Shown in pieces: positions 14,203-57,950 of a DNA stretch of 64,000 bases. The stretch spans positions 69,724-133,723 of the forward strand of contig JAHDXH010000002.1 of NCBI GenBank assembly GCA_023382875.1. Reading direction: 5' to 3'. The position numbers and the translations under genes were made by a program. The notes beneath the pieces are model-generated. The model had not been told where the DNA came from. It saw only the letters and a list, made by a program, of their open reading frames with translations, and did not search any database. Numbering within the stretch: the first letter of the stretch is position 1; the number at the start of each line of letters is the position of its first letter. The DNA comes from Patescibacteria group bacterium (GTDB lineage Bacteria > Patescibacteriota > Microgenomatia > UBA1400 > PJMF01).

Positions 14203-14255
14203 TCTACCAAGATTGTCGATACCATGCTACCAAAAAATCATGTTATGATGATTTT

Positions 14256-15038: not shown

Positions 15039-15062
15039 GTTAGCAAAAAATATTGAGATTTA

Positions 15063-16709: not shown

Positions 16710-17074
16710 TAGGAAATGATATAAATGATTCTGAATAAAGCCAGAACCAAAACGACTTGAACTACCACCGTTGACCAAGAGAAAAGGATTACTAGTAATC
16801 TATCGCTATTTGCAATTGATTTGGTAATAGCAACATGAACTAAGGTGCTAGCCAAAGCTAAGCCAGGAAATAAAAAGAGCCATTCTTTTGCAGCCAAGTG
16901 TTGAGCTGGTTCAGGCAATGAGTAAAATAAAGGAATTTGTGGTTGCGATCTGAAGTAGAAAACTAAAGTTGCCAAAGCAGAGGTTAAAGTCAAAAGGTAA
17001 ACAATTAAAAACGGTGTTTTAACAAACTTTGGTAGAAGAAAAAAATTGTTTTGTGAGCGTGATCCAAATTGCAT
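16709..17074 (-). CDS. small hypothetical membrane protein (3 predicted TM helices)
   Basis: 121 aa and hydrophobic. Translationally coupled to recJ (TAATG) and located 10 nt downstream of the peptidase gene. Confidence 0.4.
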   Translation of the reverse strand: MQFGSRSQNNFFLLPKFVKTPFLIVYLLTLTSALATLVFYFRSQPQIPLFYSLPEPAQHLAAKEWLFLFPGLALASTLVHVAITKSIANSDRLLVILFSWSTVVVQVVLVLALFRIIYIIS

Positions 17075-17084
17075 GACATTACCA

Positions 17085-18902
17085 TTATATAACTAAGTTT
17101 ATTAAATTGATGGTTTTAAGTAAGTTGGTTGTTATTTCTTCTGACAACGGAGTTCTGGAGAAGGTTTCAATGATTTGTTGTTTGATGTTGAATTGTTGTG
17201 GTAGGTCAGAAATTTCAGCTTGTTTGGCTTTGGTAAGAAGATAATCAAAAACTGGCCAAAATTTTCCAAAAGGGTTTGAATAATAGTTTTCAAGTTTGTC
17301 AATTAATTCTTTCCATTGGCTATTGTTTTCACTTTCAGCATTCGGACTTGGGTTGACCATTGTTTCGCTGGCGGGATCAAAATTAAGTTGCCACGTTTTA
17401 GTGCTTTCATTTTCAACGACTAGCTCATCGGTCAAAACTTGACCTGATTGACTGTAACTATAAAAACTTACATTTGTTGTTTCTAGAGAATGGTTAACAA
17501 TTTCAATTTTGTAATTACCTTGTTTTGGTTTTCTAATTTGAGTGATTTTCCAGTTAGTTTCTTGACCAGAAATTGGGTCAACAATTTTTTCTTCAAATTG
17601 TTCTATTTCCAGTGTAGTAGCGGGATCAGTGTTGATTATTATTTCAACATCTGGTTTTGTGACAAAGAGTAAATAACTTAAATCTGTATAGCTTGGTGTA
17701 AAAAGTCTGGATGATAGCAATTCTTTTCCATGTTGTTTGAAGTTTCTAAAAATATAATAAGGATCGAGGATAGTAAAATCTTGATTTTCTTGGTTATAAC
17801 CATTGGCAACCAAAAAGTGACCAGTAATGTTAAAAATGAGGGGTAAATTTTGAGTAAGTGCTTCGACTTGTTTTGTGAGATCACTGCCCACCAATCGTTG
17901 GTATTCTAATTTTGGCGTTCCATATCTAAGGTGAATGGCGGTGCTGAGTCTGGAGATTGCTAGCCAATTTAGCAAGCCATCACCGATATAGCCGTCGATT
18001 TGGTTTTTTAGCCATTCATTTAAACTGGCCGGTGTTATTTCTTGACCATCAGGTAAAAAATTTAATTGATAATAACGCATGACCATAGCCGCGGCAGTTA
18101 AAGCACAACCCCATCTGTCGATGGTTGGATTTGGTGACCAGAGTTTGGCAGAATCATATTCAAGTTGCGACCATTTGACATCGGTTTGTTTGAGTAGGGG
18201 AACTTCTAATTCATCTGTCAGTGTTTGAGGTAGAGAAAAAACTTGCAAGTTATCAAACGAAGACACAGATCTCTTGCTACCCAAGCTAGTTTTTAAGGCA
18301 ATGGTTTTGCTTCCTGCTGCCAGTGGCTGTTGATCGTAAACATTGAGAACTTTTTGGCCATTAATAAAAACAATTAAGCGCTGATTTTGATACTTAATGG
18401 TAAAGTGATAAATTTCATTGGCCAAAAATGGGAAGGTAGTGTGATTATTTTCCAGTGGTTGAGAAAGCCCCGCGACCACTTTTTGAGCTGTAATGCCTGT
18501 GCCATAGAGTTTGAGGTCATACCAATTGTCCTTATCTTGCCACCACCAAACAAAATTCCGATCCATGTTGATTGACTCATCAAGTCTCCAATCGAAATCG
18601 ACTTGCCAATTCGGCGAAGAGATTATTTGATTTGAGCTTGGTGTTATTGCAAGAGTACAGCCAACGCCATCAACAACAAGTTTTGCCCAGCCGTTTTCAA
18701 TTTGCCATTTGGCAGGCGATAAAACATCCAAACAATGATTCCAGCCACCCGAACCTTCATTTTGAGCAACGACCCAAGGGCTAATGCTAGCTCTGTCAAA
18801 CTGGTCAACTACTAGAGTAGTGTTTGCCCTTATAATAGGTGCGTAAAGATGACTAAAAAATTCTACGACCAGCAAGGTAAATAAAACGGCGATTGGTCTC
18901 AT
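17085..18902 (-). CDS. secreted multidomain protein: concanavalin/LamG-like N-terminal domain + C39-like papain-fold cysteine peptidase domain
   Basis: Signal peptide MRPIAVLFTLLVVEFFS. Cys motif RWGCALTAAAMVMRYYQ and His motif NITGHFLVANGY, matching peptidase_C39-like catalytic contexts. N-terminal W-rich jelly-roll-like segment. Confidence 0.55.
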   Translation of the reverse strand: MRPIAVLFTLLVVEFFSHLYAPIIRANTTLVVDQFDRASISPWVVAQNEGSGGWNHCLDVLSPAKWQIENGWAKLVVDGVGCTLAITPSSNQIISSPNWQVDFDWRLDESINMDRNFVWWWQDKDNWYDLKLYGTGITAQKVVAGLSQPLENNHTTFPFLANEIYHFTIKYQNQRLIVFINGQKVLNVYDQQPLAAGSKTIALKTSLGSKRSVSSFDNLQVFSLPQTLTDELEVPLLKQTDVKWSQLEYDSAKLWSPNPTIDRWGCALTAAAMVMRYYQLNFLPDGQEITPASLNEWLKNQIDGYIGDGLLNWLAISRLSTAIHLRYGTPKLEYQRLVGSDLTKQVEALTQNLPLIFNITGHFLVANGYNQENQDFTILDPYYIFRNFKQHGKELLSSRLFTPSYTDLSYLLFVTKPDVEIIINTDPATTLEIEQFEEKIVDPISGQETNWKITQIRKPKQGNYKIEIVNHSLETTNVSFYSYSQSGQVLTDELVVENESTKTWQLNFDPASETMVNPSPNAESENNSQWKELIDKLENYYSNPFGKFWPVFDYLLTKAKQAEISDLPQQFNIKQQIIETFSRTPLSEEITTNLLKTINLINLVI

Positions 18903-36359: not shown

Positions 36360-37310
36360 ATGTTGAAAAAAAATGGCTGGTTACTAATTTTTTCCTTTGT
36401 CTTTCTTCTGGCGGGAGCAATTTTGGCGCGCCCAGCTTTGGCTCAAAAATCACTCCTTCAAGCTGAGTTGGAAATTATTAATGATGAAGCAACTGATGCG
36501 GCTCAGGCCACTAGTGAAGGTACTTTGGCCACCCCTTCGGCTGAGGTGGTAGAAAAAATTCAGAAAAAAACTGAAGAAGATATTACTCAGCCTACCGTTA
36601 AGCAAAAAAGCAAACTTGCACAATATCTCGATGACACTCCAGTTGGTCCATTAAGTTGGAATAACTTTCTTCAACATGCTATCCGCAACGCTATTGCTGA
36701 TGGTGTAGCACCAAATATTATTGTGTTGGTTTTGCTTTTCCCACTGGTTGCTTCTTTAATTGCTGCTTCAAGACACATTATTGGTTTGAGAGGCTTTGGT
36801 ATTTATATTCCTGCTGTTTTAGCTGTGGCTTTGGTATCAACGGGCATTATGGAGGGTTTGGCCATTTTTGGTGCGATTGTGGTGGTGGCTATTTTTTCTA
36901 AAAAATTCCTTAGAAAAACCAAGCTATCTTACTTGCCTAGAACGGCCATGTTGCTTTGGTTGATTTCGATGGGTATTTTCGCAGTTATATTGCTTTCGCC
37001 AACCTTTGGTTTGGTTTCATTGATGAGTATTAACATCTTCCCGATTTTGATTTTAGTGCTCTTGTCGGAAAACTTCTTAGATGCACAATCTCGTTCTAAG
37101 CAGTCAGAAGCGATTGCTTTGACTGTTGAAACTTTAGCTTTGGCCTTTGCCTCAAGTTTGCTTTTGCGCTGGGATATTATGCAAAAATTTGCCTTAACTG
37201 AGCCAGAGCTTTTAATTTTTACTATTGCTTTGATGAACGTGATCATTGGCAAATTTACCGGTTTAAGACTTAAAGAGTGGTTTAGATTCCGATCATTGAT
37301 CGAAGAATAA
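36360..37310 (+). CDS. polytopic membrane protein (signal peptide + acidic periplasmic segment + ~6-7 TM helices); candidate partner of the ATP-grasp/QEGLA module
   Basis: MLKKNGWLLIFSFVFLLAGAILARPALA, then a hydrophobic core GLRGFGIYIPAVLAVALV... It lies 3 nt upstream of the ATP-grasp gene. Resemblance to the 7TM domain usually fused to an inactive transglutaminase is inferred from context and was not verified. Confidence 0.45.
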   Translation: MLKKNGWLLIFSFVFLLAGAILARPALAQKSLLQAELEIINDEATDAAQATSEGTLATPSAEVVEKIQKKTEEDITQPTVKQKSKLAQYLDDTPVGPLSWNNFLQHAIRNAIADGVAPNIIVLVLLFPLVASLIAASRHIIGLRGFGIYIPAVLAVALVSTGIMEGLAIFGAIVVVAIFSKKFLRKTKLSYLPRTAMLLWLISMGIFAVILLSPTFGLVSLMSINIFPILILVLLSENFLDAQSRSKQSEAIALTVETLALAFASSLLLRWDIMQKFALTEPELLIFTIALMNVIIGKFTGLRLKEWFRFRSLIEE

Positions 37311-37312
37311 AC

Positions 37313-38599
37313 ATGTCAGTCAAACCATCCCATATTTTGGGACACAATGCCAGAAATACCTATACAAAGCTCAATACTTTTGCAGCTAAAAAATACGGTT
37401 TTTCTAAATTAAGAACCAAAGAATTACTTCGCGAGCACAACATTCCCACTGCTAGTGTCTATCATATTTTTGAATCAATTAACGATGTCCAAGAAGTTAA
37501 CTGGAACAACTTTCCATTACCTTTCGTCGTTAAACCAGCTTCGGGTAGTGCGGGCAAAGGCATTGTTTTGTTAATCAAAAAAACTGCAGATGGTAAAAGT
37601 TGGATTGATAATGAAGGTCATGAGTGGAGTAGAGAAGATTTAAACCTTCATGTATCTAACATTCTTGATGGGGAGTTCAGTACTTGGGGTGAGAATCACA
37701 AAGCAATTGTGGAGGAAATGATTACACCTCATCCTGCCTTAGCTAAGTATGCTTATAGAGGTACTCCAGATATTAGAGTGGTGGTTTTCAATAGTGTGCC
37801 TGTGATGGCAATGACCAGAATCCCTACTAAAATGTCTCAAGGCAAGGCTAATTTGGATTTGGGTGCGATTGGATTGGGTATCGATATGGCCACAGGTGTA
37901 ACGACTTATGGGGTTAGTGGGAAAGCAGAAAAAATTACTCACTTTCCCAATTCCAAGAAAAAAGTTAACGGTATTCTAATTCCAATGTGGAGCAGAGTTT
38001 TGGAAGTAGCAGTTCAAGCTGCTAACGCTGCTGGCTATACCTTCATGGGAGCTGATCTTTTTATCCATCAAGAAAAGGGTCCAATGATTGTGGAGCTTAA
38101 CGGTTTTCCTGGTCTATCAATTCAGTTGGCCAATCGAGCTGGACTTAAAAAAAGATTGGATAGAGTAGAAGGTATTGAAGTTCGAGACGCCAAGCATGGT
38201 GTGAAAATTGCCCAAGCTTTATTTGCAGAAAATTTTGCTGACAAAATTAAAATTGAAGAGGGGCTCAAAATTATTTCTACCAATCCCACTGTTTCAGTTC
38301 ATGGTGATGACAAGAAATGGTATTCGGCCGAAGGCAGAGTCAACACTGGTCGTTATCGTTCGGCTATTTCAGAGGATTTGGCTGACCAGTTGGGCCTAGT
38401 CGATATCGAGGACTTACTATGGAGACAGCAAGAAGGTTTGGAGGGTAAGTTGCCAGTTGTTGAAGTACAATTCAGTCTCAAGGGTGTTAAACATAACACG
38501 GCTATGGTGGTGACTAAATCGCTTAATAAAACCAAGTATCAGGTGGAGCTGGGACGAAGAGATCTCCAGGGTTATTTGATTGGTGAAATTGAAAGTTAG
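37313..38599 (+). CDS. ATP-grasp enzyme, alpha-L-glutamate ligase-related (RimK-like) with ~130 aa C-terminal extension
   Basis: PFVVKPASGSAGKGIVLLIKK and an ATP-grasp core (MIVELNGFPGLS). 428 aa. Confidence 0.7.
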   Translation: MSVKPSHILGHNARNTYTKLNTFAAKKYGFSKLRTKELLREHNIPTASVYHIFESINDVQEVNWNNFPLPFVVKPASGSAGKGIVLLIKKTADGKSWIDNEGHEWSREDLNLHVSNILDGEFSTWGENHKAIVEEMITPHPALAKYAYRGTPDIRVVVFNSVPVMAMTRIPTKMSQGKANLDLGAIGLGIDMATGVTTYGVSGKAEKITHFPNSKKKVNGILIPMWSRVLEVAVQAANAAGYTFMGADLFIHQEKGPMIVELNGFPGLSIQLANRAGLKKRLDRVEGIEVRDAKHGVKIAQALFAENFADKIKIEEGLKIISTNPTVSVHGDDKKWYSAEGRVNTGRYRSAISEDLADQLGLVDIEDLLWRQQEGLEGKLPVVEVQFSLKGVKHNTAMVVTKSLNKTKYQVELGRRDLQGYLIGEIES

Positions 38600-38610
38600 A
38601 ACTATTTTCT

Positions 38611-39576
38611 ATGTTAACTTTGGCCAAATTAGTTCCAATCAACTTGGAATCGGAAAAACAAAGATTTTTTGCCGAAAATGGTAACTATAATCCTCAGTTT
38701 GAGTATGAAGAGAATTTTCATTCTGACGAGCTCTTGGTTCATGGTTTGCCCGAAAAGGACTTGTCAGCTTTAGCCGACAAGATTGTTCATGAAGATGTGG
38801 CTGTACAATTAGCAGCAGATGCTAAAGAAAAAGTTGACGGACTTTTATCTCAGGAAGCGGTGACTAAAAAGGTGGAAGCCTTTTTGCAATTACACGACTT
38901 AGCAGAGCGGTATTCCATTACGTGGTCGAGCAGTTTTGTTGCGAGAACTTCAATTACGGCTACAAATATTAAGCTAAGAATTCCGGCTGCCTTTAGAAGC
39001 CAAGAAGATTTGTTAGGTATGCTTTATCATGAGGTAGGCACTCATGCTTTGCGCCGAGTTAATTATGAAAAACAACCTTGGTTCAAAAAGAAAAAACAAT
39101 TTGGTTTTGGCAGTTATTTGAGAACTGAAGAAGGTTTGGCCAGCTTGCATTCACTTTTGCCCTTAAAAAATAAATCAGCTTATGGTTCAGCGCTGAGGTA
39201 TTTGGCGGTCGCTCATGCTCAAAAAGAAGGGTTTGCTGACACTTATAAATTTGTTAGTCAGTACGTTGATGATCCAGAGCGACGTTGGGCTATTACCTTC
39301 AAGCAAAAAAGAGGGTTGACCGATACTAGTTTGCCCGGTGGTTATACCAAAGATTTGGTCTATTTTGCAGGCTTAGTGGAAGTGTGGCGTTATTTAAACG
39401 AGCGCAACTTTGAAGTCGATGGTCTCTATTTTGGTAAGTTGGCCAAAGAAGACGTGGAAAAAGCTAAGGAAATAAATCCCGCTTTTGAACCATTGTTGCC
39501 AAGTTTTTATGTTGCTGATAAAGATAATTATCGCCTAAAAATGCAAGAAATTGGTCAAATTAACCATTTGTTTTAG
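38611..39576 (+). CDS. DUF1704 / QEGLA-motif protein (zincin-like putative metallopeptidase; flavohemoglobin expression-modulating family)
   Basis: MLYHEVGTHALRRVN is an HExxH-type motif, and TEEGLASLHS is the QEGLA-motif equivalent. Confidence 0.6.
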   Translation: MLTLAKLVPINLESEKQRFFAENGNYNPQFEYEENFHSDELLVHGLPEKDLSALADKIVHEDVAVQLAADAKEKVDGLLSQEAVTKKVEAFLQLHDLAERYSITWSSSFVARTSITATNIKLRIPAAFRSQEDLLGMLYHEVGTHALRRVNYEKQPWFKKKKQFGFGSYLRTEEGLASLHSLLPLKNKSAYGSALRYLAVAHAQKEGFADTYKFVSQYVDDPERRWAITFKQKRGLTDTSLPGGYTKDLVYFAGLVEVWRYLNERNFEVDGLYFGKLAKEDVEKAKEINPAFEPLLPSFYVADKDNYRLKMQEIGQINHLF

Positions 39577-40420
39577 TTAAAAACTTCATGATTTCTTGAA
39601 CCACATCGATATTGGTGCAGGCTTCAAAGCCTTTATATTGCGGGCTGCGATTAACTTCCATCACTGACCACTGTTGACTCTTTTGGTCAAAAATTAAATC
39701 GACACCAGCAATATCGTAACCAACAGCTTTGGCAGCTAAAACAGCTAATTTTGATAGTTCATCATTGAGTGGATATTCCTCAGCACTACCACCCAAGGAA
39801 ACATTATTGCGGAATTCTTCTGGATCGTTGCTGCTTCTTTTTATGGCTGCCAATGGTTTTGAGCCAATGACAATCACTCTTAGATCGCCATCATTGGGTA
39901 GGAAGGGTTCAAAAACTAAAACTTCATCGTTGTATTCTTCGACGACTTTTTGCGCTTCTTCTTTAGTTTTACACAAGAAAACACCTTTGCCTTGGTTGAG
40001 TGCGCCTCTTTTGATAATAAGGGGATATGAAGTGTTGGTACTTCGCCCAGTCTCACCAACTGCCACCACTGATGGGACGATGGGTAAGCCATGTCGACTC
40101 AGTTCAAAAAGCTCATAGCTTTTGCTGTCAATCCAACTTAAACCGTTTTCTAGAACTTGGTCGAAAACAGCAATTTGGTGGAGTTTGGCATACTTGGCAA
40201 TTAAAGTAGCTATCTCTTCTCGACCACTTAAGGTTCTCAAATAAATGGCGTCAAAATTGGTCAAATCCTGACCCTTAACTTGAATTGTTATTTCTTTATT
40301 CAAGTTAACAACTACTTCTTTGTAGTTGGCCAAAGTAACGTGATGACCCATTTTTTCGCCTTCAGTTTGGTAGCGAGTGGTAGTAGGTCGATTAAATTTT
40401 TCCAGAATCAATATTTGCAT
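39560..40420 (-). CDS. rimK: RimK-family ATP-grasp ligase (ribosomal protein S6 glutamate ligase-like)
   Basis: LIIKRGALNQGKGVFL, DLRVIVIG, GVDLIFDQKSQQWSVMEVNRSP. Start chosen at MQILILEKF; the ORF track extends to 40459. Convergent with the DUF1704 gene and overlaps it by 17 nt. Confidence 0.8.
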   Translation of the reverse strand: MQILILEKFNRPTTTRYQTEGEKMGHHVTLANYKEVVVNLNKEITIQVKGQDLTNFDAIYLRTLSGREEIATLIAKYAKLHQIAVFDQVLENGLSWIDSKSYELFELSRHGLPIVPSVVAVGETGRSTNTSYPLIIKRGALNQGKGVFLCKTKEEAQKVVEEYNDEVLVFEPFLPNDGDLRVIVIGSKPLAAIKRSSNDPEEFRNNVSLGGSAEEYPLNDELSKLAVLAAKAVGYDIAGVDLIFDQKSQQWSVMEVNRSPQYKGFEACTNIDVVQEIMKFLTKTNG

Positions 40421-40462
40421 GCGCGTATTATATCGAAAATTTCGTTTATATAGTGACAATCT

Positions 40463-45299: not shown

Positions 45300-47108
45300 A
45301 TGCGACTGGATAATTTTAAAATTGAAGAGCATCAAGACCGACTGGTAAAGCTGATCGGCTTGCTTTTGGTGGAAAAAAAGCTGACGCAGGAAAAATATTT
45401 GCAAGTCATTAAAAGAGTAACAAAAGAAGATGGACAGCAGTTTTCCAAAGATGAGTTGATTTTGGCTTATCCAAAACTGGCGGGAAAACATGGTTTGCCA
45501 GAGTTTGATCAAGCATTCATTAATAAGATTAAAATGAAGCCTGTCCGTACCCAATCGGGCGTGACGCCGGTCACAGTTTTAACCAAACCTTTCCCTTGTC
45601 CAGGTCAGTGTATTTTTTGTCCTTCTGATATCAGAATGCCTAAGAGTTATTTGAGTGATGAACCTGGAGCGCAGCGCGCAGAGAGAAACTGGTTTGATCC
45701 ATATCTGCAGGTCTACAATCGCTTGCAAGCTTTAACTAATATTGGCCATCACACTGATAAAGTTGAAATCATTATTTTGGGTGGGACTTGGTCTTATTAT
45801 CCAGAGGTTTACCAGATTTGGTTTATTAAGGAATGTTTTAGAGCACTCAATGAATTTGGTTTTTCCGATGGCCGATCGGAAGTTTTGGCAAAATATGATG
45901 ACTTGAAGCAAAGCGGCAAGTGGTCAAACGATCCTAAGGAAAATGCTCAGATTTCAGAAGATTTACTGATTGTGGGCGGGGAAAAAGAAAAATATAACCA
46001 AGTTATTTCTAACGCCTATTTGGAGCCAGAAAAGAAAGTTGGTTTGGATCAAGTGCAAACAGCAGAATGGTCAGATTTGGAGCGAGAGCAAGTGATTAAT
46101 GAAAATGCTAATTGTCGGTGTGTGGGGTTGGTGGTGGAAACGAGGCCTGACCATATTAGCGAAAAAGAAGTGACCAAAATTAGGAAACTTGGCTGTACTA
46201 AAACCCAAATCGGTGTGCAAAGTTTGAGTGATGATGTTTTGCAAAAAAACCATCGCGGCCACGCAGTAGCTGCTACAAGAAGAGCTTTTAAATTATTGAG
46301 ATTGGCTGGATTCAAGATTCACGCACACATGATGGCCAACTTGTATGGCTCAACTCCAGAGAGAGATATTGAAGATTTTAAATCACTATTTAGCGATCCA
46401 GATTTTAAACCAGATGAATTAAAGCTTTATCCTTGTAGTTTGATTGGCTCAGCGGAGCTGATGGCTTATTACAAGGATGGCCGTTGGAAACCATATAATC
46501 ACGAAGAACTGTTAAGTGTGGTTTCGGCTTCGATGGCAAATACTCCAGAGTACTGTCGTTTGACCAGAGTGATTCGCGATATTCCTTCACCAGATATTGT
46601 GGTGGGCAATAAGTTGACTAACTTTAGACAAATCGCTGAAAATAAAATGCAAGAGACTGGTGATATTAGTCACGATATTCGGGCTAGAGAAATTAAGAAT
46701 GCTGAATTTGATCCAGATAAAATCGAGCTTAAAATCGTCGATTACACTACTAGTGTTAGCAAGGAAAAGTTCTTGCAATATGTAGTCGATGTCGATGGAG
46801 TAGAAAAGATTTTGGGCTTTTTGCGTTTGAGTTTGCCAACAATTGAGCCTTATATTGAAGAATTAAAGGGTGGAGCCATGATTCGTGAAATTCACGTTTA
46901 TGGAGGGTTGGTGCAAATCGGCAAACAAGGCCATGCTAAAGCACAGCATTTGGGTTTGGGAACTAAGTTGATTAATCACGCTAGAAAAATTGCTAGCGAA
47001 GCTGGTTACAAAAAACTAAGTGTAATTAGTGCCATTGGTACCAAAGAATATTACAGGAAAAAAGGTTTTTCTGACGGCCAGCTATATCAGTATATGGATT
47101 TAGATTAA
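45300..47108 (+). CDS. elp3: Elp3-like radical SAM + GNAT acetyltransferase (tRNA uridine-34 modification enzyme homologue)
   Basis: Radical SAM CPGQCIFCP, with colinear Elp3 blocks: DPYLQVYNRLQALTNIGHHTDKVEIIILGGTW, VVETRPD, GCTKTQIGVQS, HRGHAVAATRRAF. C-terminal GNAT (HLGLGTKLINHARKIASEAGYKKLSVISAIGTKEYYRKKGF). An extended -10 TGGTAGAAT sits upstream. Confidence 0.85.
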   Translation: MRLDNFKIEEHQDRLVKLIGLLLVEKKLTQEKYLQVIKRVTKEDGQQFSKDELILAYPKLAGKHGLPEFDQAFINKIKMKPVRTQSGVTPVTVLTKPFPCPGQCIFCPSDIRMPKSYLSDEPGAQRAERNWFDPYLQVYNRLQALTNIGHHTDKVEIIILGGTWSYYPEVYQIWFIKECFRALNEFGFSDGRSEVLAKYDDLKQSGKWSNDPKENAQISEDLLIVGGEKEKYNQVISNAYLEPEKKVGLDQVQTAEWSDLEREQVINENANCRCVGLVVETRPDHISEKEVTKIRKLGCTKTQIGVQSLSDDVLQKNHRGHAVAATRRAFKLLRLAGFKIHAHMMANLYGSTPERDIEDFKSLFSDPDFKPDELKLYPCSLIGSAELMAYYKDGRWKPYNHEELLSVVSASMANTPEYCRLTRVIRDIPSPDIVVGNKLTNFRQIAENKMQETGDISHDIRAREIKNAEFDPDKIELKIVDYTTSVSKEKFLQYVVDVDGVEKILGFLRLSLPTIEPYIEELKGGAMIREIHVYGGLVQIGKQGHAKAQHLGLGTKLINHARKIASEAGYKKLSVISAIGTKEYYRKKGFSDGQLYQYMDLD

Positions 47109-50154: not shown

Positions 50155-50718
50155 ATGACAGAAGTAAAAGCTTGGAAATTAATAAGTAAAAAAGATGCTT
50201 CAGTAGGCAAGTGGTTTCCGCTTGAAGAACGAACCTACGAACTGCCTGATGGTCGAATTATTGATGATTTTACTGTCACCACTTTGTCCGACGTGTCGAT
50301 GGTAATTCCTTTCACTCCTGAGGGTAAAGTGATTATGTGTCATCAGTTCAAACCTGGCGCTGATGAATTAACTTATGAATTTCCAGGCGGCAGAATTGAA
50401 GATCGTCACGCTGATTTTGAAGCAGTGGCCAAGGCAGAGTTGGTTGAAGAAACTGGAATTGTTGCCGACCAAGTTTACTTTTTTGGTGAGACAGTGACTT
50501 TCCCAACCAAGGCTAGTGAAAGAGTTAAAAATTATTATGTTTTAAATGCGGTAGTGAGTCGTGAGCCAGAGTTTGATGAGACAGAAAATATCGAGTTGGT
50601 GTATTTCACACCTAGCGAAATTGATGAAAAGATTAAAGCGGGGGAAATTAATACAGCGCCATCATTGTCGGCTTGGTTGCAATTGAAATTAAAACACCCA
50701 GAGTTGCTACGCCAATAA
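50155..50718 (+). CDS. Nudix hydrolase (ADP-ribose pyrophosphatase-like)
   Basis: Nudix box GGRIEDRHADFEAVAKAELVEETGI. Confidence 0.8.
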   Translation: MTEVKAWKLISKKDASVGKWFPLEERTYELPDGRIIDDFTVTTLSDVSMVIPFTPEGKVIMCHQFKPGADELTYEFPGGRIEDRHADFEAVAKAELVEETGIVADQVYFFGETVTFPTKASERVKNYYVLNAVVSREPEFDETENIELVYFTPSEIDEKIKAGEINTAPSLSAWLQLKLKHPELLRQ

Positions 50719-50744: not shown

Positions 50745-51707
50745 TTATTTTTTGAGAATTTGCCAAACCTTGTCTTTGAGTTCTTCAGTGATAGACAATT
50801 TGACCATGCCTTTATTGGGTTGGCCGTAATAAAGAATGGCAGAAAGTGGCAGGGTGAGAATTAAAGCGGCGGTAATCAAATCTTCTTCGCCTTCAACTAA
50901 AATGTGATTTTTTTCTGTCAAATCTAAACTAGAAAGCTTGGTGAAAACTTCACCTGAAATTGCACCAGCGGGGTTGGAGATTTCCAAAGTGGGCGTGATT
51001 TTGGCTAACAATTCGTGGACAAATGGTTCGCGCTGAGTTTTGCCATCATAAACACCAACCTGGTAAGTCCAGTCTTTAAGTAGGAATTGTGATAAAGCAT
51101 AATCACCAACGACAGCGACCAAATCCTTGGGTGAGTGGTTGGCCACGCTGACAATTGGTCCAAGTGGTTTGGAGAAAAATTGGCGCTGTTTGGGGTCGAT
51201 GGTTACACCTTCGGGAAAACCACCTGCAAAAAATTCACCATTTCTATTGACTTGTCCGGATCTAATTTTAGTTGAGTGAAGTGGAGTATTGGTTTCGTCA
51301 TTAAGCAGCGGCGCTAAATAAATCGGTAACGGTCTTAAGCCCATAGCCTCACGAATTTCATTGATTTTGTCAGCGCCTTTTTCTGTTTCTGTGGTGGCAC
51401 ACAAACTATCAATACCTTTGAAGTCTTTATCAATTGTGGGTCCGTAGGGATCAGTCAGTTCGACAATTTCGCAGTTAATGTTGTTTTGTCGGCAAAAGTT
51501 GAGAACGTGTTTTACTCTGATTTTGTAAGGTTGGATTGATTTAGCCGCTGCTTTGCCATTCACAAACTTATCTGCCATAACACCGATGAGAAGTTTTTCG
51601 CTAAAAGAATCAGCGTACTTCAAAAAACTTTCATGACCAATATGAAAATGGTCGAAAGTCCCGCCCATGGCCATTAAGTGAAAACGTTTTTTTAGTTTTG
51701 GCAACAT
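50745..51707 (-). CDS. fusion: archaeal-type phosphopantetheine adenylyltransferase (COG1019-like) + DUF359 domain (putative GTP-dependent dephospho-CoA kinase, archaeal type)
   Basis: N-terminus MAMGGTFDHFHIGH...TDPYGPT...PLHSTKIRSG has the cytidylyltransferase HxGH and archaeal PPAT pattern. C-terminal VVGDYALS...DGKTQREP...LVEGEEDLITAAL resembles the DUF359 consensus, from memory. Start moved to the internal M at 51707 so the gene does not overlap tRNA-Leu. The ORF track extends to 51821. Confidence 0.55.
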   Translation of the reverse strand: MLPKLKKRFHLMAMGGTFDHFHIGHESFLKYADSFSEKLLIGVMADKFVNGKAAAKSIQPYKIRVKHVLNFCRQNNINCEIVELTDPYGPTIDKDFKGIDSLCATTETEKGADKINEIREAMGLRPLPIYLAPLLNDETNTPLHSTKIRSGQVNRNGEFFAGGFPEGVTIDPKQRQFFSKPLGPIVSVANHSPKDLVAVVGDYALSQFLLKDWTYQVGVYDGKTQREPFVHELLAKITPTLEISNPAGAISGEVFTKLSSLDLTEKNHILVEGEEDLITAALILTLPLSAILYYGQPNKGMVKLSITEELKDKVWQILKK

Positions 51708-51740
51708 TACGATATTATACTTCCTTCTAGGCGAAATGAG

Positions 51741-51762: not shown

Positions 51763-51848
51763 CGCCGCGGTGGTGAAATGGTAGACACGCGAGACTTAAA
51801 ATCTCGTGATAGCAATATCATGCGGGTTCGAGTCCCGCCTGCGGCACC
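51763..51848 (+). tRNA. tRNA-Leu (anticodon TAA), CCA encoded
   Basis: Cloverleaf folds. 7-bp acceptor GCCGCGG/CTGCGGC with one G-T wobble. Anticodon loop CTTAAAA. Long variable arm. T-arm GCGGGTTCGAGTCCCGC. Confidence 0.9.
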
Positions 51849-51905
51849 AGTGAGAAGTTAGAGATTAAAAATTGAATTATAGCCAGCCAAATTTTTGGCA
51901 AAGAT

Positions 51906-51979
51906 CGGGGAATAGCTCAGATGGCTAGAGCGCGCGGTTTGGGACCGCGAGGCCGCAGGTTCGAGCCCTGTTTCCCCGA
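51906..51979 (+). tRNA. tRNA-Pro (anticodon TGG)
   Basis: Acceptor CGGGGAA/TTCCCCG, anticodon stem CGCGG/CCGCG with loop TTTGGGA, T-arm GCAGGTTCGAGCCCTGT. No encoded CCA. Confidence 0.9.
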
Positions 51980-51987
51980 CATAATAA

Positions 51988-52013
51988 AGAATCCAGCATT
52001 GCTGGATTTTTTA
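51988..52013 (+). terminator. intrinsic terminator after tRNA-Pro (stem ATCCAGC/GCTGGAT + T6)
   Basis: Hairpin at 51991-52007 followed by TTTTTT. Confidence 0.7.
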
Positions 52014-52117
52014 TTATCTTGGAGATAATTGTGAAAACCTTTGGTTCTGCCGGCGAGCGAGACTGGTGGCTTTGTTGCTTTGGAATCACGAAGCGCCCGC
52101 CTAATCCTTGGAAAGGG

Positions 52118-52139
52118 GAGCCCTGTTTCCCCGACATAA
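52118..52139 (+). repeat. direct repeat of tRNA-Pro(TGG) 3' end (GAGCCCTGTTTCCCCGACATAA), 155 bp downstream of the intact copy; att-like scar
   Basis: 22/22 nt identical to 51963-51984. Like the original, the copy is followed by its own hairpin and T-run. Confidence 0.8.
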
Positions 52140-52145
52140 AAAAAG

Positions 52146-52168
52146 ACAGCCTTAGGGCTGTTTTTTTA
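52146..52168 (+). terminator. second hairpin + T7 terminator following the tRNA 3' repeat
   Basis: ACAGCC-TTAG-GGCTGT followed by TTTTTTT. Confidence 0.6.
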
Positions 52169-52247
52169 TTTCTCTAGCAAAAACCTCCGCATTTGAGGGC
52201 GGAGGTTTGCTTGTGCATCAGAGCAGAGCGTGTTTGGAAATTTTTGA

Positions 52248-53030
52248 TTAAAGGTCAGGTTGTTCGGCACGGCAGTTGCGCCAGACCGGTCCCAGCGCCG
52301 CCAGACCTTCAAATTCCGTGTAGCTGGTTGAGTTGCCTACCCGAATTTGGACGGTGTAATGACCATCCATGCTGGCTTCCTGAGAAAGGGACTCACTGTT
52401 ACAGCCCAGATAGGTTGCCTGTAACATGAGGGTCGAGTGTGAGGTTTCGTATCCCGGGCCGGGAACCTCAAAAATTCTGGCAATTTTAGTGTTGCCATCA
52501 TAATTGCCCACAGCCACGTATCTATCACCCTCCCAGCGATTGCTGACGTACATGGTCGAAAATCCACCCGACTGCAACAATTCCAATTCGTCATTGGTAA
52601 TGTTGTAGGCATACAGCAGTGGATAATCGTCGGCAGTGCGAATGGCGGTAAAAACCATCCAGTCGCCCGAAATTGCGGCATTGGTGCAGACCACATCGCC
52701 TTGCTCACAGCGAGAGACGGTGTTGATTTCAAAGTCCGCATCGTCAAACTCCACCCAAGCGGCAATGCCGAGGGGGATGTTATTGCGAATGGGAACTTCG
52801 TCAACGATGATGAATGAAATATACATCCCATCAGCAGACCATGAGGGTGAAGTCGCGTTCTCTTCAAGGTCGCTGGTGACATTGAGGGTAGTTTGGCTTT
52901 GCGCTTCAACTGCCAAAATTTCACCGCTATCTTCTACGAGAAACCACGAGGGTCGAGTGTCACCGGCTTGCGCCAGTGACCCTCCAGCCAGCAGGCTGAA
53001 GAACAGGGTCAAAAAGAACAGGCGTTTCAT
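52248..53030 (-). CDS. secreted protein with PD40/TolB-like beta-propeller repeats; high-GC (~52%) island gene
   Basis: Signal peptide MKRLFFLTLFFSLLAGGSLAQA. Repeated SPSWSADGMYISF, ISGDWMVFTA and VAVGNYDGNTKIA motifs resemble PD40 blades. GC is clearly above the roughly 40% flanks. Confidence 0.45.
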   Translation of the reverse strand: MKRLFFLTLFFSLLAGGSLAQAGDTRPSWFLVEDSGEILAVEAQSQTTLNVTSDLEENATSPSWSADGMYISFIIVDEVPIRNNIPLGIAAWVEFDDADFEINTVSRCEQGDVVCTNAAISGDWMVFTAIRTADDYPLLYAYNITNDELELLQSGGFSTMYVSNRWEGDRYVAVGNYDGNTKIARIFEVPGPGYETSHSTLMLQATYLGCNSESLSQEASMDGHYTVQIRVGNSTSYTEFEGLAALGPVWRNCRAEQPDL

Positions 53031-53262
53031 AGCTTTAGGTCTCCTTGCTTAACCAATTAGCTCTACCGAATCTTTAAGTTCGGACTAATAAAAACACCAA
53101 AAAATGTTCTTATTAGTCCAAACTAAGTTATCGGCTCTGATGTTAATGTGCCTGCGAACATAAAGTTTCGCAGACCCTAACTATAACAGAAAAAAGACTA
53201 AATGTAAAGTTATAGGACGTATAATATCTGAACTTTTAAATAAATTGACTGGTAGATTTTCC

Positions 53263-53290
53263 TTGACTCATGGCAGTTTTATCCTATAAT
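53263..53290 (+). promoter_or_regulatory. near-consensus sigma70-type promoter TTGACT-16 nt-TATAAT driving the 53324 gene
   Basis: TTGACT at 53263-53268 and TATAAT at 53285-53290, with a second TTGACT at 53245-53250. Confidence 0.5.
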
Positions 53291-53323
53291 TACCTGTCCG
53301 CAAAATAGCAGAGGAGTAAGCTC

Positions 53324-53683
53324 TTGGAAATAAAAGGTACGATTGCGTTAATCGTTGACCCTCAGGATTCTTTGTTCTGGGGTGGCTGGATGGAGCATTT
53401 GCGCGAAGATGGTTGGGAAATCGCCATGTTCAAGCACCCGTCATGGATTCAGCCTGATTCAACCTCGCCGTTGCCCGAAGGGGTGATGGAAGCTAACGTG
53501 CTGATGGTGTATGGTCTGGGTGTGCAAGATTGGTGGGTTGAGGCGCTAACTGCTGCCAATAAGCCAACCGTCTATATCACTTCCATTGGTACGCCGAACC
53601 TGAAGCTCGATAAGCTGGCAGTGGTCGATGGCTTCTTCCGCTATGAGGAACTGTTGGCGGCAGTGGAGAAAGTTGCCGCCTAA
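53324..53683 (+). CDS. hypothetical protein (119 aa), high GC (~52%), no recognisable motifs
   Basis: ORF preceded by a strong promoter and followed by a bidirectional terminator. The IALIVDP N-terminus hints at a flavodoxin/receiver-like fold, but the diagnostic residues are not evident. Confidence 0.4.
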   Translation: MEIKGTIALIVDPQDSLFWGGWMEHLREDGWEIAMFKHPSWIQPDSTSPLPEGVMEANVLMVYGLGVQDWWVEALTAANKPTVYITSIGTPNLKLDKLAVVDGFFRYEELLAAVEKVAA

Positions 53684-53696
53684 CAATCACAGAAAA

Positions 53697-53725
53697 ACGA
53701 CAGGGTTCAAAGCCTGTCGTTTTTG
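53697..53725. terminator. bidirectional intrinsic terminator (stem ACGACAGG/CCTGTCGT) between convergent 53324 gene and eamA
   Basis: 8-bp stem with an 8-nt loop. T-run on the plus strand and an A-run on the 5' side that gives a U-run for the minus strand. Confidence 0.7.
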
Positions 53726-54598
53726 CTAGAGCGCGGTTGTGATAATTCCACAGACAGTGAGAATAATGCCTAAACCTTGAACTTTGTTAATTTTTTCGCT
53801 GGAAAAAACCATCGCTAAGCCGACAGTAACAATTGTGAGTGCTGAGGCAATTGGAGTGACGATAATGCCATCGCCATAAGCTTGGCCAAAGCTAGCACTT
53901 AGTACACCAATCGCTTCAAAAATACCAACTGCAGCGATCAAAGCCACAAGTTTTTTATTTGGTTTGCTGATGCTTAAAGATTGTTTTCTAAATTTGGCAA
54001 TTAAAAAAACAACGCCAATAGCGACGAGCTTAACCAAAAAACTGACCAAAATCCAATCGGTTTGTTCAACAATGAATTCATTAACTGGCCAGTAAAAAAT
54101 GCCAAAAATTACTGCAGCGATGAGAGTTTCTTTGACTCCAGTTAAAAGAGCTAGACTGCCTTTTTTCAAATCAATAAAGTTGACGCTGACTAGCAAAATG
54201 CCGAACAAAAGCAGAGCAATGGCGGGAACTTGCAATCTTGATAATTCTTGACCTCTAATGAAAAAAGAAATGGCGATCACAAATAAAACTTGAATATTGA
54301 TTGTCGCGGAGATAACAGAAACATTACCGATTTCAAAGCCTTTATAAAAAAATAAGTAGCCAACTGCATACATAATTCCACAAAAGACAGTCAGGGCCAA
54401 AAGTGGAGCGGAGATAGCGAAGCTACCAGAAACAAAAAACAAGAAAAAGCCCATTAAAAATAAGCCCGCTATTTGGGACCAAAAAAGGGTTTTGTTGTGA
54501 CCAACTTTTTCTGAAGCAGCATTGGCAAAGAAATCAGAAGTTCCCCAACCAACCATGCCGCCCAAGCCACTTAAAATGCTGAGTAAGGTTTTATCCAT
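53726..54598 (-). CDS. EamA/DMT-superfamily transporter (10 TM)
   Basis: Two EamA-like halves (GMVGWGTSDFFANAASEK...; ...GVLSASFGQAYGDG). Confidence 0.7.
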   Translation of the reverse strand: MDKTLLSILSGLGGMVGWGTSDFFANAASEKVGHNKTLFWSQIAGLFLMGFFLFFVSGSFAISAPLLALTVFCGIMYAVGYLFFYKGFEIGNVSVISATINIQVLFVIAISFFIRGQELSRLQVPAIALLLFGILLVSVNFIDLKKGSLALLTGVKETLIAAVIFGIFYWPVNEFIVEQTDWILVSFLVKLVAIGVVFLIAKFRKQSLSISKPNKKLVALIAAVGIFEAIGVLSASFGQAYGDGIIVTPIASALTIVTVGLAMVFSSEKINKVQGLGIILTVCGIITTAL

Positions 54599-54659
54599 AT
54601 TTAAATCTAACTAAGTTAGTTTAACAGATGTTTAATCATGTTAAACTAGATTTATCATT

Positions 54660-55781
54660 ATGTTCAACGAAGCACTTCCACTACCACATCATGAGTCACC
54701 AAAATTACCAAAAGTGCCAGAGGGTCACGTGGAGCTAGAACAACTCAAAGAATTACTGGAAGAACATCGAGAGGAATTGGCGCAATTAGTGGAAAGATCT
54801 AATACTTCGCCATATTTACCACAAGGAGAAAGCGGTCTGGTTGGGGAAGTAAAATTTGTGGTGGATAAAAGATTGGGCAAACAGCAGCCAGTAAGAATTA
54901 TTTCGCTAACTTTTCCTAATGGCAGTACTGCTGAGGTAGTGATGAGACCAACTCAAAGACATTTTTCTGAGTATCAAGAAAAATATGAGGCAGTTAAAAA
55001 ATATTTTCCACAACTGCTTTTGAGTTTGCCTGCACCTGATGGCGATGAGGTTTTATTTTTAGAAAAAATTACAGGTTTGGAACAAAAAACTGATGAAGCT
55101 GGTTGGTATGAATATGTTGGCCATGGTGAAAATTTCAGAAAAACTAATAGTGACTTCTTTAGAATCATGGATGAGGTTTTGGAAGCTCCACTTATTTTGA
55201 ATGATATCCAACCGCAGGAAGGTCATAATGTTTTTTTGAATTCAAAAACTGGAGAAATACAACTTTTTGATGTAGATACTTTGCTTCCATCTGATGAAAG
55301 CCATGAGTGGAAATTTATTGTTTGTGTAGGAGGCATGATTAGCTCAAGTCCTTTTGAAGGTCAATCAAATTTTAAATTGGCTTTTCAATTTGAATTGCTA
55401 AGACAATATTTGGAGAAATACTCTGAAGCTGTTTTTGAAAAAGTAGAAGAACCTCGAACTTTGCGAAGATTGGTTTATCTTAATCCAGATGATGAAATTG
55501 AAAACCCCGATCAATACTTGCGAATTTTAAAGCCAACTGACGGTGACTATGGAAATGTTTTTCGTCAATATTCTGCTGGGGGCACCAGAATGTGGAAGGT
55601 AATGAATTTCGGCAAACCATTGCCAGTAATTGCTGAGCTGCAAATGTTTTCTCGTAAAAAAATGAGATTGCGATCAGACATTAGACAAGCTGTGGAAAAT
55701 GGAGACTTTGTTGGTTTTAGAAATTGCTTGCAAAAAAATATTCAAATCATTGAAGAAGTAGAAGAGAAGGTTGAGCGCTAA
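54660..55781 (+). CDS. hypothetical protein; possible atypical protein-kinase-like fold
   Basis: LILNDIQPQEGHNVFLNSKTGEIQLFDVDT resembles an HxD..N catalytic loop followed by a DFG-like DVD. No Gly-rich loop is identifiable. Confidence 0.3.
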   Translation: MFNEALPLPHHESPKLPKVPEGHVELEQLKELLEEHREELAQLVERSNTSPYLPQGESGLVGEVKFVVDKRLGKQQPVRIISLTFPNGSTAEVVMRPTQRHFSEYQEKYEAVKKYFPQLLLSLPAPDGDEVLFLEKITGLEQKTDEAGWYEYVGHGENFRKTNSDFFRIMDEVLEAPLILNDIQPQEGHNVFLNSKTGEIQLFDVDTLLPSDESHEWKFIVCVGGMISSSPFEGQSNFKLAFQFELLRQYLEKYSEAVFEKVEEPRTLRRLVYLNPDDEIENPDQYLRILKPTDGDYGNVFRQYSAGGTRMWKVMNFGKPLPVIAELQMFSRKKMRLRSDIRQAVENGDFVGFRNCLQKNIQIIEEVEEKVER

Positions 55782-57431
55782 TTAAATTTTCTCTGCGTCT
55801 TTGGTATCGATCAGTTGTTGTGGTGTCATGAAGTAGAGATCGATCATTTTTTGCTTTTGTTCTTCGGTAAGATTTTGTAGTTTTTCTGTTCTGACCATGA
55901 TTTTGGTTTCGCGACCATCAAGTCTCTTGAGTCTTGTATATTCGCGGTCAAGTTTGGGTTTAATAGCTTCATGGAAGCCATTTTCAGAATCGGGATCGAA
56001 CAACACATAAGTTGGCGGATTATTCATGAGCATGGTTTGATAATTAGCTCTAATTTCTGGAGAACGCCACGCCCAAGGAAGATGGAAAAGTTCTTTTCCA
56101 GCAATCGGAACGTCGGCAATGATGTTGATATAGCCAGCGCCATCAGGTCCGGTTAGTAAGGTGTCAGTTGGTTCTTTGAGAACTTTAATAATGTCGGCGG
56201 TAGATTGGAAATCTCCGTAACCGATGAAGTGTTCTTCTAATTTATTTTTCTTTTCCAAAATCCACGGCGAAATTTGACCAATCAAAATTACAGGAATGAT
56301 GAAATAAATTAACATCAGCCAAGTTTTTTTGGATTTCGACCATGACCAAAGTAAGAATTGAGCAATCAACATTCCCCACGCAGCAATGAATGGGTAAAGG
56401 TGAAAGCCGGTATAGAACATGGTGGGAAAGACGAAGACACGATTGTTGAGACTTAAAACTAAGATAAAAAGTAAAAGCCATTTTGACCAGTCACTCAATT
56501 TGCTTTTGTTTGATTTGAGAGCAAAAATTACGCCCAAAACAATTAAAACATTTTGCCAAATAAAGAATTTACCCAAGCTGGTTTCAGCATGAAGGAAGGC
56601 TTGGAAAGGGTAAGTATAAGCAGTGAAGCTGTCTTGCCAAGTTTTGGCACCATGAATATCGACCACATATTTCATGACATTGCGGATACTTTCTTTGTAC
56701 CAGCCAATGGGAGAAACAATAATAAAGACGAATGATAATAAAATAATGTAAGTAGAAGCTAGAGAAATCTTTTGTTCTTTGTCTGAATACCAGGCATAAG
56801 CTAATCCAGAAATAAAAACATATGGCCAAAGCGGTGAGAGTGACATAGTGATCCAAGCTGAAGCTAGGGCAAAAAGTGCTGGATCGACCCAGGATAATTT
56901 CTTTTTTAACCCCAAGTGGTCATCGCTTTTTTGTTTAAAGATTTTTTCAATCAAAAGCCCAAGACTAAGGGCTAGGGCGGGAGCGGCTAAAGTTTCGCCT
57001 AATAAATACCAACCAAAGAATAGGTAAGAGGTACTTGCCAAAATCGCTGAGACAAATAGTCCTCGCCATCTAAATCTCCACGTCAAAACAAAAAGCCAGC
57101 TGGCCATCAAAATAAATAAAGCGACTCTAATTCTCTCTACCAATAAAAATAGAGTGTTGTAAGGAATGAGTTTGGTAATGAGGGCGCCAAGTAAAAATGG
57201 CAAGGGCTGATGATTGACTGACAGATCAGTATAGAGACCTTTATTGTATTTCCACATCATCCAGCCATTGGTGAGATGGTCGGTTTCGTCTTGGAAGTAC
57301 CACGACTGACTATGTTTCTTGAGTCCATAAAAAGTCACCGCCAAAATAACTGCCAAAACAGCGAGGGGTAAAAAATAGCTAATGATTTGGCGTAGTGAAA
57401 ACTTGCCAAATAAAATTGGACGGTCAAACAT
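55782..57431 (-). CDS. GT-C fold membrane glycosyltransferase (ArnT/PMT-like, GT39/GT83-like)
   Basis: About 12 TM helices. First-loop motif FQDETDHLTNGWMMW resembles the DE..H/Y acidic motif of GT-C enzymes. Large C-terminal periplasmic domain. Confidence 0.55.
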   Translation of the reverse strand: MFDRPILFGKFSLRQIISYFLPLAVLAVILAVTFYGLKKHSQSWYFQDETDHLTNGWMMWKYNKGLYTDLSVNHQPLPFLLGALITKLIPYNTLFLLVERIRVALFILMASWLFVLTWRFRWRGLFVSAILASTSYLFFGWYLLGETLAAPALALSLGLLIEKIFKQKSDDHLGLKKKLSWVDPALFALASAWITMSLSPLWPYVFISGLAYAWYSDKEQKISLASTYIILLSFVFIIVSPIGWYKESIRNVMKYVVDIHGAKTWQDSFTAYTYPFQAFLHAETSLGKFFIWQNVLIVLGVIFALKSNKSKLSDWSKWLLLFILVLSLNNRVFVFPTMFYTGFHLYPFIAAWGMLIAQFLLWSWSKSKKTWLMLIYFIIPVILIGQISPWILEKKNKLEEHFIGYGDFQSTADIIKVLKEPTDTLLTGPDGAGYINIIADVPIAGKELFHLPWAWRSPEIRANYQTMLMNNPPTYVLFDPDSENGFHEAIKPKLDREYTRLKRLDGRETKIMVRTEKLQNLTEEQKQKMIDLYFMTPQQLIDTKDAEKI

Positions 57432-57839
57432 TTATCGAGTTGTCTGTAGTTTGTAATGTTCTTTTTTCATGCACTCATCCATGATTACAATCATGCCTGC
57501 TTGCTCGGCTTTGGCTTTTGCTTCTGGTGCAATCACGCCTTCCTGAAGCCAGAGGATGGGTTTGATGTTGAGACTTAAAATTTCATCAACAATTTCCATG
57601 ACGGCTTCTGGTTGACGAAAAACATCAATAATGTCAATTTCTTCTGGGTTGGGAATTTGGGAAAGGCTGGCAAAAGCGGTAAGACCAAAAACTTCTTTGA
57701 TCATGGGATTAACGGGGATAATTTCAAAACCATTTTCCATTAAGTATTTGGATACACCGTGACTGGGTCGAATCGGATTATCAGAAAGACCAATGACGGC
57801 AATTCTTTTGGGAGGGTTCAAAATTTCGGCTTTCGTCAT
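57432..57839 (-). CDS. CoA-binding domain protein (YccU/COG1832 family)
   Basis: IAVIGLSDNPIRPSHGVSKYLMENGFEIIPVNP is the Rossmann CoA-binding motif. Start chosen at MTKAEIL; the ORF track extends to 57893. Confidence 0.7.
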   Translation of the reverse strand: MTKAEILNPPKRIAVIGLSDNPIRPSHGVSKYLMENGFEIIPVNPMIKEVFGLTAFASLSQIPNPEEIDIIDVFRQPEAVMEIVDEILSLNIKPILWLQEGVIAPEAKAKAEQAGMIVIMDECMKKEHYKLQTTR

Positions 57840-57950
57840 GCTGACATTTAAGCAAAAAAGCGAGGTAAGGGCAACCAGACAATAGAAGTTCAATTTTTCG
57901 AGGAGTAAAATAGCAATTTGTTGATGGATATTCTTTGAAGAATGATTAAA

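Follow-up and report, generated by a model that had tools for sequence, protein, structure and literature searches.

In this study, a 64,000-nucleotide stretch of contig JAHDXH010000002.1 (positions 69,724 to 133,723; assembly GCA_023382875.1, a Patescibacteria group bacterium), hereafter the window, was analysed with regard to one gene on its minus strand, located at positions 50745-51707. With a probability of about 0.8, this gene encodes a single-chain, archaeal-type coenzyme A (CoA) synthase, in which a phosphopantetheine adenylyltransferase (PPAT) is fused to a dephospho-CoA kinase (DPCK) of the DUF359 family. This architecture is already known from archaea, and the window gene is one member of a large, under-annotated family of the candidate phyla radiation (CPR) of ultra-small bacteria. 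The gene, its two domains and their key residues are as follows (positions are those of the window).

50745..51707, minus strand: PPAT/DUF359-type DPCK gene, 320 aa; intact open reading frame (ORF) with a TAA stop at 50745-50747
51234..51674, minus strand: archaeal/eukaryotic-type phosphopantetheine adenylyltransferase domain, aa 12-158 (NF001985, PF01467, 3do8)
51633..51644, minus strand: H22-I-G-H25, the (H/T)xGH nucleotide-binding motif of the nucleotidyltransferase fold (from the alignment)
51261..51278, minus strand: H144-S-T-K-I-R149, second nucleotide-binding motif of the ISSTxxR type (from the alignment)
50748..51233, minus strand: DUF359/arCOG04076-type DPCK domain, aa 159-320 (PF04019, NF041125, 8jvc)
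51102..51104, minus strand: D202 (VVGDY), equivalent to the catalytic D48 of the Thermococcus kodakarensis enzyme, Tk-DPCK (alignment to 8jvc)
51045..51047, minus strand: D221 (YDGKT), equivalent to the catalytic D67 of Tk-DPCK (alignment to 8jvc)
50880..50882, minus strand: D276 (GEEDL), equivalent to D125 of Tk-DPCK (alignment to 8jvc)

The N-terminal half is an archaeal-type PPAT

The original prediction, made from the nucleotide sequence alone, assigned the first ~150 residues to the archaeal type of PPAT and not to the bacterial CoaD type, and profile, sequence and structure comparisons all agree with this. The NCBIfam model of archaeal-type PPAT (NF001985, PRK00777) matched aa 8-159 with 125.6 bits, against a curated cut-off of 104 (E 1.7e-36), the cytidylyltransferase-like family PF01467 of Pfam matched aa 14-150 (E 2e-10), and the PPAT of A. 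fulgidus (PDB 3do8) was matched at the sequence level over aa 12-157 (E 6.5e-20). The bacterial CoaD model (TIGR01510-type) was absent from the NCBIfam matches of the protein at E<=1, and an E. coli CoaD sequence, used as a query, gave no match to it at E<=0.01. A Foldseek comparison of the predicted model with 3do8 gave an E-value of 1.4e-8, a TM-score on target of 0.75-0.82 and 32-34% identity, whereas bacterial CoaD structures reached E-values of ~1e-4 and 10-16% identity, and thus the fold is closer to archaeal PPAT. The model of the bifunctional PPAT/NTP phosphatase (NF002250, PRK01170) scored 89.5 bits, far below its threshold of 489, and covered the PPAT half only (aa 13-158). Fungal PPAT-like proteins were weak matches to the same half.

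Both nucleotide-binding motifs are preserved in an alignment of 43 fused proteins, archaeal ones included. In the first motif, no variation is seen at G24 and H25, while H22 is conserved in at least 90% of the sequences; in the second, for which the family consensus is ISSxRIRxGxINRxG, R149 is invariant.

The C-terminal half is a DUF359 domain

For the C-terminal half, the original prediction had made itself dependent on a DUF359 match, and this match proved to be clear: Pfam PF04019 scored 79.5 bits against a gathering score of 25 (E 2.1e-22, aa 216-320). The GTP-dependent DPCK of Thermococcus (PDB 8jvc) was matched both by sequence (E 4.4e-13, aa 184-318) and by predicted fold, being the top PDB match of the model in Foldseek (E 1.7e-11, 170 aligned columns, TM-score on target 0.72). 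The underlying AlphaFold2 model of the whole protein, built from the 43-sequence alignment, is confident (pLDDT 93.2, pTM 0.87), and its top two PDB matches are 8jvc and 3do8.

In TK1697, the T. kodakarensis enzyme, the substitutions D48A and D67A severely impair function in vivo, while D125A does so more mildly (PMC6650551). The corresponding residues of the window protein (D202, D221 and D276) are invariant in the 43 fused proteins, as well as in a set of 10 fused and standalone sequences that comprises CPR, DPANN and marine group II (MGII) fusions, standalone archaeal DPCKs and TK1697. The GD, DxxTxR, GEEDL and YGQP motifs are also invariant across the CPR, DPANN, MGII and standalone proteins.

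Both halves are under strong purifying selection. In a comparison with a homologue of 93% identity that stems from an independent run, the ratio of non-synonymous to synonymous substitution rates (dN/dS) was 0.042 for the whole gene, and 0.025 and 0.053 for the PPAT and DPCK halves, respectively, values that are to be read with a dS of ~1, i.e. near saturation. The low ratios in both halves indicate that both are kept as a working protein.

Reading frame and start of the gene

The coordinates proposed originally correspond exactly to a minus-strand ORF of 320 codons followed by TAA, and all of the quoted motifs are present in its translation: GGTFDHFHIGH (aa 15-25), DPYGPT (aa 86-91) and STKIRSG (aa 145-151), followed in the C-terminal half by VVGDYALS (aa 199-206), DGKTQR (aa 221-226) and LVEGEEDL (aa 270-277). 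The mechanically longest frame reaches position 51821 and clashes with a tRNA-Leu(taa) gene on the plus strand (51764-51849); because of this overlap, the start at 51707 is the reasonable one. An alternative start codon (M12) is found at 51674 and some orthologues are called from the equivalent methionine, which leaves the start uncertain over 11 codons. Just upstream of the ATG at 51707, the sequences TATAAT (51714-51719) and AAGGAAG (51720-51726) were noticed by eye; a scan for promoters and terminators gave no more sites than chance would produce.

Predicted function and the role of the DUF359 half

Judging from the homology of its two domains, the protein would carry out the last two steps of CoA synthesis. 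In the first step, the N-terminal domain would convert 4'-phosphopantetheine and ATP into dephospho-CoA and pyrophosphate, and in the second the DUF359 domain would phosphorylate the 3'-hydroxyl, turning dephospho-CoA and GTP into CoA and GDP. By analogy with the T. kodakarensis enzyme, GTP is probably the phosphate donor. The fusion of the two domains may bring a benefit such as the hand-over of dephospho-CoA between the active sites. This compact protein would be convenient for asking if GTP dependence and substrate hand-over are general for this type of enzyme.

Several points weigh against the CoA synthase assignment. The Thermococcales GTP-dependent DPCK equivalog model (NF041125) scored only 54.5 bits against a cut-off of 300 (E 9.4e-15), and therefore the orthology to the characterised enzyme is distant (~27% identity), although this model is order-specific and bears on close orthology, not on membership in the family. 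The genomic context gives no independent support, since neither CoA-related neighbours nor a linked transporter were found in 80 related loci (the best 80 of at least 519 species genomes of GTDB, with 10 kb analysed on each side). Moreover, CoaE or CoaD may be encoded elsewhere in the genome.

The alternative that survives best is that the PPAT half works as described, while the DUF359 half of the bacterial proteins serves as another small-molecule kinase or pyrophosphokinase, or as a regulatory domain binding CoA or dephospho-CoA. The low identity to Tk-DPCK and the low NF041125 score are in line with such a role, as is a distant relationship of this family and its fold to the thiamine pyrophosphokinases (PMC6650551). 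Against it stand the invariance of the three experimentally tested aspartates and of the surrounding motifs in fused and standalone proteins alike, the strong constraint on this half, and its attachment to the enzyme that acts one step earlier, which is the very architecture that correctly predicted the archaeal DPCK. Altogether, a different role of the DUF359 half is considered improbable.

Supply of 4'-phosphopantetheine and use of CoA

None of the canonical genes coaA/X, coaBC, coaD and coaE was found in the 64-kb window, which represents ~10% of the genome or less. CoaD- or CoaE-like ORFs were likewise not detected in the window or in ~1.2 Mb of related loci, using a weak phmmer probe with E. 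coli sequences. It is plausible that 4'-phosphopantetheine is taken from the host or the environment and not made by the cell, which would amount to a nutritional dependency on the uptake of this compound. Most Mycoplasma species have PPAT and DPCK only, and this was read as scavenging of 4'-phosphopantetheine (PMC8721197). Because of this precedent for keeping just the last two steps, the idea of salvage is reasonable.

The CoA-dependent proteins of the window, which were counted as support for the CoA synthase assignment together with the lack of a canonical route within the window, are listed below.

45300-47108, plus strand: Elp3 homologue, 602 aa, with radical SAM and GNAT domains (TIGR01211, 480.9 bits against a cut-off of 350)
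57432-57893, minus strand: standalone CoA_binding_2 protein, 153 aa (PF13380, E 5.4e-37)

The Elp3 family uses acetyl-CoA. Elp3 is an archaeal/eukaryotic-type tRNA U34 modification enzyme, found here in a bacterium and within a conserved block together with the fusion gene. The CoA_binding_2 protein resembles the CoA-binding N-terminal domain of the alpha subunits of ADP-forming acetate-CoA ligase.

Genomic neighbourhood

Besides the fusion gene, 59 ORFs of the window were scanned against Pfam and NCBIfam. They include genes of (i) cell division and wall synthesis (FtsZ, FtsA, FtsW, MurG, a class A penicillin-binding protein and LytR-CpsA-Psr), (ii) replication and repair (DnaG, RecJ, RecQ, MgsA/RarA and ParB), (iii) translation and tRNA metabolism (ribosomal protein L21, ribosome recycling factor, a class I tRNA synthetase of the I/L/M/V type, methionyl-tRNA synthetase and MnmA), as well as (iv) IscS/NifU and an M50 protease. 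These genes are plainly bacterial and the named homologues of the fusion protein come from Pacebacteria, Levybacteria and other Patescibacteria, which upholds the view that an archaeal-type enzyme sits in a bacterium.

The order fusion gene, Nudix, MgsA, RecQ, MazG recurs on independent contigs obtained in other sequencing runs. Across the 80 GTDB loci, the fusion gene is flanked by MgsA and by RecQ in 29 cases each, by Elp3 in 24 and by a MazG-like protein in 16. Clustering of the ORFs of these loci returned housekeeping neighbours only, namely MgsA, RecQ, Elp3, MazG, GreA and VanW, together with a solute-binding protein, RmuC, TsaD, DUF192 and an EndoIII-like protein. A pair of tRNA genes, tRNA-Leu(taa) and tRNA-Pro(tgg) (51764-51980, plus strand), lies immediately upstream of the fusion gene in opposite orientation, and an identical arrangement is present at 9755-9935 of the Paceibacterota locus L001, whose fusion protein is the closest GTDB species match. 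As this match has only 57% identity, GTDB does not contain the species of the window.

This conserved setting bears on the possibility that the fusion is redundant, i.e. that the genome also has CoaD and CoaE, perhaps even the full pathway, and that the fusion came in by horizontal transfer as an accessory duplicate. Such a possibility is fed by the limited view, which covers 64 kb of this genome and flanks of 10 kb in its relatives. It is, however, very unlikely: the family is deep in Patescibacteria, with ~35% mean identity across lineages, the gene resides in a housekeeping block as a long-resident core gene would, it is under strong selection, and the CoaE probe, weak as it is, found nothing in the window or the related loci. 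Finally, an artefact of misassembly or mis-binning that placed an archaeal fragment on a bacterial contig, in favour of which one could cite the archaeal type of both domains and the GC content of 0.47 just upstream of the gene (52-54 kb; ~0.40 elsewhere in the window), is in effect refuted because the synteny is conserved on independent contigs, and it also disagrees with the GC content of the gene itself (0.41 vs 0.40 for the window) and with the bacterial tRNA pair next to it in both the window and L001.

The gene following in convergent orientation was considered as a possible partner of the CoA synthase.

50155-50718, plus strand: Nudix hydrolase, convergent with the fusion gene, with 26 bp between the two stop codons

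Although the Nudix gene is kept in the close relatives L081 and L082, it is present in just 1 of the 80 GTDB loci and its best NCBIfam matches are weak and NudE/ADP-ribose-like; it is not recognisable as a CoA pyrophosphatase and was rejected as a part of the system. Inspection by eye also showed no CoA-Nudix signature upstream of the Nudix box. A second candidate, a supposed additional PPAT-DPCK near the Levybacteria-type fusions, was rejected as well, as it is an unrelated cytidylyltransferase-like protein of ~160 aa. It carries the motif GGCFDILHxGH and is encoded three to four genes upstream of the fusion, adjoining VanW and solute-binding-protein genes, in the following loci.

Loci with the ~160-aa cytidylyltransferase-like protein: L032, L038, L039, L041, L044-L047, L052, L053, L055, L058, L061, L067, L069

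Distribution and annotation of the family

A word-indexed search recovered ~100 clusters carrying both domains. An exhaustive HMMER search of 1.84 billion representatives yielded 450 clusters (at 50% identity) with E<=1e-30; among the best 150 of these, all proteins are 303-396 aa long, and 148 match the query end to end, the other 2 in two stretches. In a genome scan, at least 519 species genomes of GTDB were found to encode a relative of the fusion protein, and the best 80 loci span Paceibacterota and Levy-, Woese-, Roizman-, Beckwith-, Chisholm-, Yanofsky-, Cerri- and Saccharibacteria. Many of the genomes with the CPR-type gene are titled 'uncultured Pseudomonadales', 'Gammaproteobacteria', 'Vitreimonas sp.', 'Limisphaerales' and 'Methylococcaceae' (e.g. 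L002, L006, L008-L011, L018 and L029), titles that are probably taxonomic mislabels of metagenome-assembled genomes of Patescibacteria.

In the databases, the fused proteins are named 'pantetheine-phosphate adenylyltransferase' only, which describes half of the predicted function, while standalone haloarchaeal members bear the name 'GTP-dependent dephospho-CoA kinase family protein'. Because metabolic reconstructions rely on names and this family is named as PPAT only, the last CoA step would appear missing in CPR bacteria. Recognition of the C-terminal half as a DPCK closes this gap for hundreds of CPR species.

A CoA-related role of DUF359 was predicted from domain fusions by Makarova et al., and it was by way of a PPAT-DPCK fusion of uncultured archaea that the archaeal DPCK was later discovered (Shimosaka 2019, PMC6650551). 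In that work, PSI-BLAST retrieved archaeal members only (PMC6650551). Among open-access full texts, no literature was found that connects CPR bacteria with DUF359, DPCK or archaeal-type PPAT, the papers being archaeal only, and the bacterial occurrence of the fusion appears to be undescribed. The present results thus correct the picture of DUF359/arCOG04076 as a family restricted to archaea (PMC6650551, PMC6393860) and add a clear case to the genes common to CPR bacteria and archaea.

Evolution of the fusion

The archaeal fusions recovered here consist of the cluster P0100, whose members are named as Euryarchaeota/Thermoplasmatota, and a tight Aenigmatarchaeota-type clade (loci L065, L072 and L077). 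In the last of these loci, the flanking genes are truly archaeal; they encode XPF/ERCC4, DUF460, a Hef-like helicase and a YGR210-type GTPase.

Neighbour-joining trees were constructed for the full-length fusions (319 columns, 100 bootstraps) and for the DPCK domain only (157 columns). In the full-length tree, the MGII-type and the Aenigmatarchaeota-type clades were each supported by a bootstrap value of 100%, with mean within-group identities of 63% and 70%, respectively. The bacterial sequences fall outside both archaeal clades; their monophyly received a bootstrap value of 41%, at a mean within-group identity of 35%. The mean identity between groups was 32% for CPR vs DPANN and 28% for CPR vs MGII. 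The CPR subclades roughly track the CPR lineages, with 99% support for the Paceibacteria-type group, and the tree of the DPCK domain only is star-like at depth. The CPR fusion family is therefore old and diverse.

As the domain order is common with the archaeal fusions and the closest non-CPR relatives are archaeal, the bacterial fusion most likely goes back to a gene that was already fused when it was transferred between bacteria and archaea long ago. With three groups in an unrooted tree, the direction of such a transfer is not readable. A broader scenario would be that most CPR bacteria are devoid of CoaD and CoaE, produce CoA solely with a fusion that they inherited from an early ancestor of the CPR, following an ancient exchange of the fused gene with archaea, and depend on the 4'-phosphopantetheine of their hosts. 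This is put forward only tentatively, at rather less than even odds; if it were true, a family held to be an archaea-specific core gene would be common to one of the largest bacterial radiations.

In the Aenigmatarchaeota locus L077, genes for a LuxC-like acyl-CoA reductase, a LuxE-like acyl-protein synthetase and FIST-domain proteins (13954-17945) adjoin the fusion. L072 probably has this cluster too, an assignment based solely on ORFs that agree in size and order. A CoA-linked gene context was seen only in this clade.

Other features of the window

One more gene of the window concerns an enzyme family associated with archaeal PPATs.

6441-7076, minus strand: DUF84/NTPase_I-T inosine/xanthosine triphosphatase, unfused, adjoining NifU/IscS

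DUF84 is the second domain to which archaeal PPAT is known to be fused (as in NF002250), and in the window it is encoded as a standalone protein. The region at 36360-40459 encodes a 7TM_transglut membrane protein, a sugar-transfer-associated ATP-grasp protein, a MATCAP-like carboxypeptidase and, in divergent orientation, a RimK-type ATP-grasp protein, and looks like a peptide-ligation or peptide-modification system. Within 52001-57431, four ORFs showed no Pfam or NCBIfam match: 52248-53030 (minus strand), 53324-53683 (plus), 54660-55781 (plus) and 55782-57431 (minus). The product of the first begins with a hydrophobic N-terminus that resembles a signal peptide.

Comparison with known systems

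Eukaryotic CoA synthase (COASY) also carries PPAT and DPCK on one polypeptide and performs the same two reactions; its PPAT half is of the archaeal/eukaryotic type, and its kinase belongs to the P-loop CoaE family (PF01121). The parallel with this enzyme, drawn in the original prediction, holds for the predicted function only and does not extend to the fold of the kinase half. The Pfam scan gave no PF01121 match in the fusion protein, whose C-terminal half belongs to PF04019, with the Rossmann-like DUF359 fold. The COASY kinase is unrelated to DUF359, and hence the two fusions are analogous, not homologous.

Mycoplasma species, host-dependent bacteria of reduced genome that appear to keep the last two CoA steps only (PMC8721197), may be a parallel to the window organism, but they use separate, bacterial-type CoaD and CoaE. 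The PPATs of archaea (3do8 and the enzymes of Pyrococcus abyssi and T. kodakarensis, TK2128, cited in PMC6650551) are of the same type as the N-terminal half, though they are standalone. TK1697 (PDB 8jvc, 8jvf and 8jvg) shares with the C-terminal half its fold, Pfam family and three critical aspartates; it differs in being a standalone protein of 177 aa with ~27% identity, and the use of GTP by the window protein is assumed by analogy with it. The archaeal PPAT-arCOG04076 fusions (e.g. AIF21550.1 of group II/III Euryarchaeota, PMC6650551) differ in that the host of the window protein belongs to Patescibacteria and that the identity amounts to just 24-32%. With these fusions (323-377 aa, against 320 aa), the window protein has in common both domains, their order and the invariant motifs of each half.

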